IMG/VR virus record: IMGVR_UViG_3300025030_000039
Coordinates: 252,878-316,877 of that record
Length of the DNA stretch: 64,000 bases
Source: a virus
Strand: one strand, 5' to 3'
This document shows positions 33,262 through 34,066 of this stretch, one piece after another. The notes beneath the pieces were generated by a model, which was not told where the DNA came from, made no database searches, and saw nothing but the letters and a program-made list of their open reading frames with translations. A program made the position numbers and the translations under genes. Numbering within the stretch: the stretch's first letter is position 1; each line of letters begins with the position of its first letter.

Positions 33262-33927
33262 TTATTTGTTAATTGTTGTTAAAATATTTTTTATATTTAA
33301 TGCTATATCTTCTTTACCACTTAATGCTTTAACATTTTTATTTTTATCTATTAAATATGCAACATGTATATTTTCATCTTTCATTTCTTTTTTATCATTA
33401 GCTATTACATAATCACACTTATTTTTTTCTAATGATTCTGTTGCAATATTAATTAATTCAAAATAATTTAATCCAACTTCAAATTTAAAACCAATAAGTA
33501 TAACATCTTTATTCCATTCTTTATTCCATTCTTTAATATATGAAATTATTTTAGGATTATATTTTATTCTTTCTGCTAAAGATTGTATAAATGCTTCTTT
33601 ATCGGTACTTTTTAATTTAGTAGTAATAGGTTCAAATCCAAAATCGCTAACAGTCATTGTATGTATAACTACATCTACTAAAGGAATTAACTCCTCCATT
33701 ATTTTCTTTAACGAATCAACATTTGTAATTTCATATATATTTTGTATATTTGATGGTATAACACTACCTCTAGCATAAACATAAAAAATATTATGACCAG
33801 CTCTATGTAATTCTTCTGCTATTATTGATCCTAATTTTCCAGATGATATATTAGTTAATACTCTAACATCATCTATGTATTCACGTGTACCTCCAGCTGT
33901 AATTAAAACTCTCATATAATGTGACAA
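33262..33927 (-). CDS. coaB: phosphopantothenate-cysteine ligase (CoaB domain of Dfp/CoaBC)
   Basis: MRVLITAGGTREYIDDVRVLTNISSGKLG matches the CoaB signature. Confidence 0.75.
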   Translation of the reverse strand: MSHYMRVLITAGGTREYIDDVRVLTNISSGKLGSIIAEELHRAGHNIFYVYARGSVIPSNIQNIYEITNVDSLKKIMEELIPLVDVVIHTMTVSDFGFEPITTKLKSTDKEAFIQSLAERIKYNPKIISYIKEWNKEWNKDVILIGFKFEVGLNYFELINIATESLEKNKCDYVIANDKKEMKDENIHVAYLIDKNKNVKALSGKEDIALNIKNILTTINK

Positions 33928-33961
33928 TTAATTTTTTAATTGCGTATACGGTATAATAAAT

Positions 33962-34066
33962 TTAAAATATTAACGTAATAATATGATTATGATTTTGTAA
34001 ACAAGTAATAACATCAAGAACTTTATATGCAGAAATACCACCAGATATAGCTATTAATATTTTCAT
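33962..34066 (-). pseudogene. 34-aa remnant of the CoaC (PPC decarboxylase flavoprotein) N-terminus
   Basis: MKILIAISGGISAYKVLDVITCL matches the Dfp N-terminal ILLGVSGGIAAYK box and then stops; about 150 aa of CoaC are missing before CoaB. Confidence 0.55.

Follow-up and report, generated by a model that had tools for sequence, protein, structure and literature searches.

Introduction

Most bacteria carry phosphopantothenoylcysteine decarboxylase (CoaC) and phosphopantothenate--cysteine ligase (CoaB), two enzymes of coenzyme A (CoA) synthesis, as a bifunctional Dfp/CoaBC protein (TIGR00521) in the order CoaC then CoaB; in Streptococcus and Enterococcus, monofunctional CoaB and CoaC (TIGR02114, TIGR02113, 2gk4) are encoded by separate genes. 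Here, we describe a locus in 64,000 nucleotides of viral DNA (IMG/VR record IMGVR_UViG_3300025030_000039, positions 252,878 to 316,877; hereafter the window, meaning this whole stretch), in which a 34-codon stub of coaC precedes a stand-alone coaB, and in which phosphopantetheine adenylyltransferase (PPAT, CoaD) is fused to an HD-like domain. We read the locus as the remnant of a phage CoA gene set after an internal deletion, that is, as a cofactor-supply module that would now rely on the CoaC of its host, and we put the probability of this reading at roughly 0.7.

The Streptococcus/Enterococcus type provides the best NCBIfam and PDB matches and shares with the phage the separation of the two genes, but the phage proteins score below the equivalog cut-offs, the phage CoaC apparently descends from a form with an M23-like domain, and the CoaC gene of the window is reduced to 34 codons. 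The two catalytic domains and their order are those of Dfp/CoaBC, yet the relatives of the phage carry them in two genes and none in one polypeptide. The phage PPAT is 27-38% identical to solved PPATs, including bacterial CoaD (e.g. E. coli, 1b6t), and keeps their motifs, but unlike ordinary bacterial CoaD it has a C-terminal HD/phosphodiesterase-like domain of ~220 aa. COASY is the eukaryotic fusion of PPAT with dephospho-CoA kinase, and PANK4 combines a pantothenate kinase (PanK)-like domain with a DUF89 phosphatase acting on 4'-phosphopantetheine; both are precedents for fusing late CoA enzymes to one another or to a phosphohydrolase with control over 4'-phosphopantetheine-type metabolites, and can be compared with the CoaE-PPAT-HD proteins described below. 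This is an analogy only, and in the case of PANK4 the hydrolase fold is unrelated to that of the phage HD domain.

Huge phages are known to carry genes for translation and nucleotide metabolism. The NAD+ salvage genes of the NAPRTase/NMNAT-Nudix type likewise represent cofactor supply in large phages, for a different cofactor, and such genes also occur in the window. The main text of the huge-phage paper by Al-Shayeb et al. (2020) does not mention CoA; in its supplementary GenBank files, ~12 genomes have genes labelled as CoaE, PPAT or CoaBC-like (PMC7162821). Most other 'phage' matches for CoA genes are short or unannotated records, many of which we suspect to be perhaps bacterial sequence.

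The coaC remnant

The window sequence is identical to that of LR756500.1, a 462,018-bp 'uncultured phage' record, which corresponds to GWB1_PHAGE_COMPLETE_CIR-CU-CL_25_34 from Rifle groundwater (supplement of Al-Shayeb et al. 2020, PMC7162821). The whole LR756500 genome was rebuilt from the public record and searched by local tblastn. The original prediction had named three elements, a CoaC stub, an intact CoaB and a CoaD with an additional domain, and all three are present on the minus strand at the positions given here and in the following sections.

33262..33915, minus strand: coaB, stand-alone phosphopantothenate--cysteine ligase, 217 aa, apparently intact (PF04127)
33916..33961, minus strand: 46-nt spacer from the stub stop to the coaB ATG (sequence and three-frame translation)
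33962..34066, minus strand: coaC (phosphopantothenoylcysteine decarboxylase) remnant, 34 codons, beta1-loop-alpha1 FMN-binding segment followed by TAA
34063..34305, minus strand: hydrophobic open reading frame (ORF), 80 aa, whose stop overlaps the stub ATG (ATGA)

The stub translates as MKILIAISGGISAYKVLDVITCLQNHNHIITLIF and ends with a TAA stop. It contains AISGGISAYK, the CoaC N-terminal nucleotide-binding segment G-G-[IV]-[AS]-A-Y-K, and matches positions 1-33 of the 162 positions of PF02441 (Flavoprotein; E=2e-4, 21.4 bits, slightly short of the gathering score, 22.7) as well as TIGR02113 (coaC_strep; E=1e-3); a complete flavodoxin-like CoaC domain (~160-180 residues) is absent. The roles of the catalytic His, the PAMN motif and the substrate-clamp Cys are known from Dfp. 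All three lie beyond residue 34 and are deleted in the window genome, and the intact relatives show the corresponding motifs (HI..., P[AG]TAN, PAMN and ACG). The profile scores alone would be marginal, given the abundance of small ORFs in a 64-kb AT-rich window, and the proposed check on the similarity of the stub yielded a marginal answer from Pfam by itself, its significance being upheld by comparison with relatives. Compared with the intact CoaC of the 735-kb phage LR756501, the stub shows 53% identity to the N-terminus; against six intact phage CoaC N-termini its identity is 38-74%, the intact proteins being 50-97% identical to one another over the same segment.

The stub might instead be a small ORF that arose by chance and happens to contain a Rossmann-like glycine motif; its sub-threshold Pfam score and the richness of AT-rich genomes in short ORFs would agree with this. 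Such an origin is effectively refuted: the stub lies directly upstream of coaB, where relatives have intact CoaC; it reaches the upper end of the above identity range against their N-termini; it was the sole match of three intact CoaC queries in the entire 462-kb genome (tblastn; E=1.2e-5, 5.8e-4 and 6.9e-4); and its start overlaps the stop of the upstream gene. Homology, the synteny of relatives and genome-wide uniqueness together confirm that the stub is a genuine remnant of coaC. Assemblies from NCBI, JGI, ENA and Logan contain an identical 34-aa gene, on six contigs in all. Since the stop of the 80-aa upstream ORF, which has no Pfam, NCBIfam or PHROG match, overlaps the stub ATG, the stub retains a coupled start.

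The ancestral arrangement and the deletion

In the 735-kb phage, the stop of the gene ahead of coaB overlaps the coaB start, and the 354-aa product of that gene joins a full CoaC (PF02441, 115 bits, positions 1-161) to a C-terminal M23-like domain (PF01551, with 37 bits over its threshold score). Intact coaC, mostly coaC-M23, is located upstream of coaB in the loci L001, L003/L106, L004, L008, L009, L010, L104, L105 and L107. The CoaC-M23 fusion (~360 aa) is encoded near-upstream of coaB, with zero or one to three small ORFs between, in the IMG/VR contigs L003 and L004, and is also found in the metagenome contigs L008, L009, L010 and L105; a flavoprotein of 381 aa (L104) or 255 aa (L107) occupies the coaC position in two others. 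In L005, CoaC and the M23-like protein are the products of separate neighbouring genes near coaB. Altogether, coaC accompanies coaB in 10 of 11 related huge phages (nearby in L005), the exception and sole relative of its kind being L006, where coaB has no coaC within 6 kb.

L001 4940-6004; L004 4613-5710; L008 2889-3986; L009 3916-5004; L010 2822-3907; L105 8940-10013: CoaC-M23 fusions in relatives
L005 6879-7481 and 7858-8376: CoaC and adjacent M23-like genes, unfused

The M23-like domain of the relatives keeps HxxxD and seemingly has Glu or Met in place of the two M23 catalytic histidines (YGEI; [ST]MLH). M23-like proteins of XacN1 and phiKZ-like jumbo phages share 40-48% identity with this domain, whose part in CoA synthesis, if any, is not obvious.

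Neither in the window nor in any relative examined do coaC and coaB form one polypeptide; the two overlap by 4 nt or are separated by one to three small ORFs. The ancestor was thus a pair of genes and not a fused dfp. The description of the locus as a decayed dfp in the original prediction does not hold for this reason, given that 10 related phages keep coaC and coaB apart with coaC usually fused to the M23-like domain; the suggested comparison with related genomes for an intact CoaBC did recover intact coaC, but always separate from coaB. The window genome has lost ~330 codons (an estimate based on intact coaC orthologues of 354-381 aa) by an internal deletion that removed the remainder of CoaC and the fused M23-like domain, with the junction at or beside the 3' end of the stub.

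The missing codons are not found elsewhere. The 46-nt spacer is too short to hold them, and three-frame translation revealed no CoaC-like frame 3' of the stub stop; the M23-like domain was not found in LR756500 (tblastn, whole genome), nor did the intact CoaC-M23 protein, searched against the phage collection, detect a second copy in this genome. Recoding or read-through of the stub stop was rejected, with a TAA stop, no CoaC similarity in the downstream frame and 46 nt left, as was a split or intron-interrupted coaC, for which no second fragment exists anywhere in the 462-kb genome. Because the stub is no more diverged than the intact N-termini are among themselves, the deletion may be recent by the standards of this phage group, or else the stub may have been kept for its coupled translation start.

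CoaB

The ORF-finder call for CoaB (33927..33262) begins with TTG at 33927, which is probably not the true start; the likelier start is the ATG at 33915 (MRVLITAGGT), as annotated in the public record. As the original prediction had stated, CoaB is intact as an ORF of its own: it matches PF04127 with 120.8 bits (gathering score 22; E=7.9e-35) over profile positions 4-172 of 186. The best NCBIfam models are the monofunctional PRK06732 (NF005231) and coaB_strep (TIGR02114); the closest solved relative is 2gk4 (E=8.7e-28), and the alignment to 2gk4 and 5int is full-length. The nucleotide- and substrate-binding motifs (GGTxExID.VR.xTNxSSGxxG, xSDF, KxK, AND) are conserved.

At E<=1e-20, CoaB has 588 relatives, many on contigs of 100-736 kb, and the nearest are 45-60% identical. 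The claim that pieces of this pathway are uncommon in phages accordingly stands for phages at large and fails for this huge-phage group, in which coaB and coaC are conserved. In an alignment of 114 phage CoaBs, 60 columns reach a conservation of at least 90%, and the window protein retains 58 of them, with 42 of the 114 deviating equally or more; its mean identity to the family is 52.4% (family average 50.9%). One of the two deviations is accounted for by a short tandem duplication.

33506..33535, minus strand: 12-nt tandem duplication in coaB (KEWN-KEWN, in-frame insertion of four residues; Tandem Repeats Finder), period 12, 2.5 copies, 100% match, aligning as an insertion relative to the orthologue

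It could be argued that the whole CoA module is being lost and that CoaB is a functionless orphan that has not yet mutated, leaving only CoaD-HD and CoaE of importance. The joint retention of CoaC and CoaB in almost all relatives suggests that CoaB alone is perhaps of little benefit, and the fresh 12-nt duplication and a stub without extra divergence, which fits a recent deletion, point in the same direction. We nevertheless consider this explanation unlikely: the conserved columns, the average identity and the intact frame give no sign of decay in CoaB, as judged from its alignment; L006 likewise has coaB without a nearby coaC; and the CoaB product can be used by the CoaC activity of the host. 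To our knowledge, any bacterial host has such an activity, the CoA pathway being universal.

The PPAT-HD fusion protein

The second gene of interest (45861..44701, minus strand) encodes a protein of 386 aa with two domains.

45370..45861, minus strand: PPAT (CoaD) domain, residues 1-164 (TIGR01510, motifs, AlphaFold2 (AF2) model)
44701..45369, minus strand: HD-superfamily, phosphodiesterase-like domain, residues 165-386

Residues 1-157 match TIGR01510 (CoaD) with 128.7 bits, above the cut-off of 103.3. Ten full-length homologues of the fusion (27-35% identity) share the PPAT motifs; GSFDxxTxGH, KK, RGLR and SSS are invariant in the alignment of fusion proteins (A2), namely at G16, H17, K41, R92, G93 and S135. 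The AF2 model has a pLDDT of 90.8, and its top 50 Foldseek matches in the PDB are all PPATs (target TM-score 0.75-0.92). Reassignment to NadD or NMNAT, which the original prediction had named as the outcome that would overturn its CoaD call, was rejected: the protein scores only 20.7 bits against NadD (cut-off 167) and 12.9 against NMNAT-Nudix, all 50 structural matches are PPATs, and a separate NMNAT-Nudix gene is present in the window. Profile scores and the predicted structure together identify 45861..44701 as a genuine PPAT.

The extra HD-like domain that had been predicted at the C-terminus (~220 aa) is likewise borne out. It matches phrog_19425 ('phosphohydrolase'), and its predicted fold, the all-helical HD/phosphodiesterase catalytic fold, is closest to class I cyclic-nucleotide phosphodiesterases, to which, as to other HD hydrolases, it is 12-16% identical. 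H208, H212, H244, D245 and D311, which correspond to the metal-binding H...HD...D pattern, are invariant in the 10 fusions, and their equivalents are invariant in 40 family members. Pfam HD (PF01966) remained below threshold, with no match in the window domain and a weak match in 5 of 40 relatives (best E=2.5e-4), and the domain sequence gave only chance matches against the PDB. The family to which the domain belongs is a large uncharacterised bacterial group of ~215-aa proteins with >5000 protein clusters; a literature search on COG4339 and on PPAT with an HD domain returned nothing relevant.

The genomic context of this family repeatedly involves CoA genes. In a Patescibacteria metagenome-assembled genome (MAG), coaE lies directly upstream of a PPAT-HD fusion gene and overlaps it; two protein clusters (P0009 and P0201) are CoaE-PPAT-HD triple fusions, and further PPAT-HD fusions are found among the best HD-family matches. 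In an alphaproteobacterial MAG (L021), a stand-alone HD gene is immediately upstream of coaD, the only case in 80 bacterial coaD loci, and none of the 80 ordinary bacterial coaD genes sampled has HD as a fusion partner. The PPAT-HD fusion is also encoded on a second contig of clearly phage-like character, whose other products include RNA ligases, dUTPase, VanY and a baseplate protein; among deposited phage genomes it occurs only in LR756500, and a single-protein pattern scan of IMG/VR yielded none.

The linkage to coaE, the triple fusions and the coaD neighbour tie the HD domain to the last CoA steps in several lineages, notably host-dependent ones, and on this basis we guess that the domain may supply or recycle 4'-phosphopantetheine, or edit related metabolites, for PPAT. 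A specific form of this guess, to which we attach very little weight, is salvage, in which the domain would free 4'-phosphopantetheine from host holo-carrier proteins or another phosphodiester-linked source and pass it to PPAT. If true, this would constitute a short cut to CoA past CoaB and CoaC for phages, Patescibacteria and some alphaproteobacteria, would explain why coaC was dispensable in the window phage, and would mean that a phage can strip and recycle the prosthetic group of host acyl carriers. AcpH (PF04336) is an HD-family phosphodiesterase of acyl carrier protein (ACP) that frees 4'-phosphopantetheine from holo-ACP. As this activity would yield the PPAT substrate, AcpH is an attractive functional analogue of the phage HD domain. 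The domain was rejected as an AcpH itself (hhalign probability 0.2%, with an AcpH sequence verified as PF04336; no PF04336 match).

CoaE and the rest of the pathway

CoaE (dephospho-CoA kinase) is encoded at LR756500 61508..62089 (L095 7508..8089), ~7.9 kb past the end of the window, with 114.5 bits to TIGR00152 (cut-off 65.55) and 130.7 bits to PF01121, and also occurs in 634-, 642- and 735-kb phages. The coaE gene is situated inside a cluster of seven tRNA genes (L095 7428-10286), with tRNA-Thr directly upstream and tRNA-Gly directly downstream. Of the steps of CoA synthesis, the phage thereby encodes 2, 4 and 5, formerly also 3 and apparently never 1. Nothing was found at E<=1 for ACP or AcpS in the whole of LR756500 by single-sequence tblastn, a search of low sensitivity, and motif scans of 801 ORFs, likewise of low sensitivity, contained no type III PanK or ACP signatures; the AcpS and PanK query sequences were verified by Pfam.

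The original prediction had suggested that the module could be tuned towards 4'-phosphopantetheine as its product, or towards a nucleotide-linked cofactor other than CoA. The fusion of PPAT to a phosphodiesterase-like domain and the incompleteness of the phage-encoded pathway would fit such a product. However, 4'-phosphopantetheine is the product of precisely the enzyme that was deleted, a CoaE above its equivalog cut-off is encoded, and the bacterial PPAT-HD fusion is coupled or fused to CoaE; the idea is therefore unsupported, and we regard it as highly improbable.

A distant CoaB-like domain (24% identity) with a C-terminal domain of ~170 aa is encoded by a second huge phage from the same sample, LR745208 (L002 3947-5113; 55% G+C). 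This gene is annotated as CoaBC-like in the GenBank file of the source paper (PMC7162821).

Discussion

We propose that the ancestors of this phage lineage carried coaB as a separate gene behind a coaC-M23 fusion gene, and that the loss of ~330 codons of coaC-M23 left the original start, which overlaps the stop of the upstream ORF, 34 CoaC codons and a stop. In the present phage, CoaB would activate 4'-phosphopantothenate with a nucleotide triphosphate and join it to cysteine, decarboxylation to 4'-phosphopantetheine would fall to the CoaC of the host, the PPAT-HD fusion would make dephospho-CoA, and phage CoaE would convert the latter to CoA, with reliance on host PanK from the outset. Such a module may raise or maintain CoA synthesis during infection, beside the NAD salvage and ADP-ribose genes. 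PPAT is a secondary control point of bacterial CoA synthesis, and a phage-encoded PPAT could plausibly relieve host control at this step. The homologies, the synteny and the deletion are direct observations of this study, as are the degree to which CoaB is conserved and the assignments of PPAT and CoaE. From them we infer the enzyme activities, the reliance on CoaC and PanK of the host, and an advantage for the phage.

Several points weigh against this reading. Given the pairing of CoaC and CoaB in 10 of the 11 relatives, it must be asked why CoaB should be kept without CoaC, and CoaB may have been retained only for lack of time to decay. CoaB scores below the equivalog cut-offs (173.9 vs 265 for PRK06732; 154.3 vs 217.2 for coaB_strep), so that these scores leave the exact substrate of what appears to be a divergent member of the family not certified. 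PanK was not found in the whole of LR756500 with E. coli CoaA and type III PanK queries (E<=1; low sensitivity), so that the CoA pathway of the phage was apparently never complete. Our literature search found no published work on CoA genes in phages. Lastly, the independent Logan contig SRR1658462_17576, which is identical to the window over 3.7 kb, ends at 33979, a position that falls within the stub's codon 30 and lies ~10-15 nt away from the junction, and this end could mark an undeleted variant coexisting in the sample.

This last point leads to the alternative that the deletion is not fixed, the window representing a deletion variant or a collapse during curation or assembly, with intact coaC-M23 phages present in the same sample; a contig end beside the junction is what would be expected of a branch in the assembly graph. 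Nevertheless, the six contigs, which come from four sources and have a second short contig among them, all contain the complete stub with its stop; the two short contigs jointly reproduce the window sequence with zero mismatches; and when 5.8 billion proteins were searched, with limited sensitivity, for the stub and its orthologue-derived continuation, only the stub itself was returned. An unfixed deletion therefore appears quite unlikely to us.

Alternatively, CoaB and the former CoaC-M23 might act outside CoA synthesis by joining cysteine to another carboxylate (e.g. on a peptide or a cell-wall-related molecule), in which case CoaB alone would give a cysteinylated product. The HFCD flavoprotein family, to which such a proposal appeals, also holds peptide-cysteine decarboxylases, and both the persistent fusion or adjacency of CoaC to an M23-like domain that plays no part in canonical CoA synthesis and the scores of CoaB and CoaC under the equivalog cut-offs could be understood in this way. 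On the other hand, the intact CoaCs score ~161-164 bits to phosphopantothenoylcysteine decarboxylase models and ~19 bits to the model for cysteine decarboxylases of ribosomally synthesised and post-translationally modified peptides, PPAT and CoaE, which catalyse the next CoA steps, are encoded in the same genome, and the window CoaB retains the motifs common to solved CoaB structures. We find a substrate outside CoA synthesis distinctly improbable, and keep to the reading of a CoA module that would draw on host CoaC.

On that reading, one phage lineage possesses a near-complete CoA route (CoaB, CoaC, PPAT and CoaE, only PanK lacking) that is undescribed in the literature searched, and CoA would join NAD as a cofactor managed by large phages. 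The locus is a partly decayed metabolic gene set and not a new pathway; pseudogenisation inside an auxiliary metabolic gene set is real but an ordinary kind of event, here in an undescribed setting. The stub offers a dated example of gene loss within a phage metabolic module, and the phage, with CoaB and without CoaC, a natural experiment. In addition, two uncharacterised architectures emerge, CoaC with an M23-like domain and PPAT with a phosphodiesterase-like HD domain, and the recurrence of PPAT-HD with CoaE in reduced-genome bacteria provides a lead to the function of the uncharacterised HD clusters.

Host and neighbouring genes

The window has a G+C content of ~24%, and almost all genes from ~24.9 kb to 64 kb are on the minus strand. 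It spans the start of the linearised circular record, so that window 1-9851 (~9.85 kb) corresponds to the end of LR756500; small length differences are seen near the record end, e.g. a 72-nt offset between window 9001 and 9801. A scan for promoters and terminators around the locus showed no promoter enrichment (10 sites vs 15.4 expected) and no terminators.

A CRISPR spacer in a Bacteroidetes genome matches the LR756500 phage (supplement of PMC7162821). The gene at window 46731..47840 (minus strand) encodes a secreted-looking protein with a type A sorting tail of the type IX secretion system (T9SS; TIGR04183, 32.7 bits, cut-off 23), and the tail and the spacer together fit a Bacteroidetes/Bacteroidota host.

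Six regions of the minus strand (window 28780-29559, 39448-40722, 53266-54066, 54747-55934, 55939-56418 and 57455-58366) contain NAD/ADP-ribose genes, encoding a Macro domain, a PARP catalytic domain, an ADP-ribosylglycohydrolase, NAPRTase, a nucleoside 2-deoxyribosyltransferase-like protein and NMNAT-Nudix. NAPRTase exceeds its equivalog cut-off and, with NMNAT-Nudix, covers NAD synthesis; as a set, the predicted products suggest NAD salvage and control of ADP-ribosylation alongside the CoA genes.

Immediately 3' of coaB, an 827-aa protein (window 30755-33238, minus strand) shows major-vault-protein shoulder/repeat domains and an SPFH/band-7 match, an unusual finding in a phage. The region directly upstream of the stub (window 34352-36555, minus strand) encodes an RNA-repair pair consisting of an HD + P-loop kinase (AAA_33, Pnkp-like) and an RNA ligase whose N-terminus is HNH-like, beyond which lie an AAA ATPase and an R2K ATP-grasp protein. 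Two adjacent leucine-rich-repeat proteins (window 23297-24133 and 24149-24928, plus strand) are located where gene orientation switches, and window 48717-51979 (minus strand) comprises a PhoH-like ATPase, whose intein-splicing-like match is weak and stays below threshold, an overlapping ORF of 430 aa and a PIN_4 protein.

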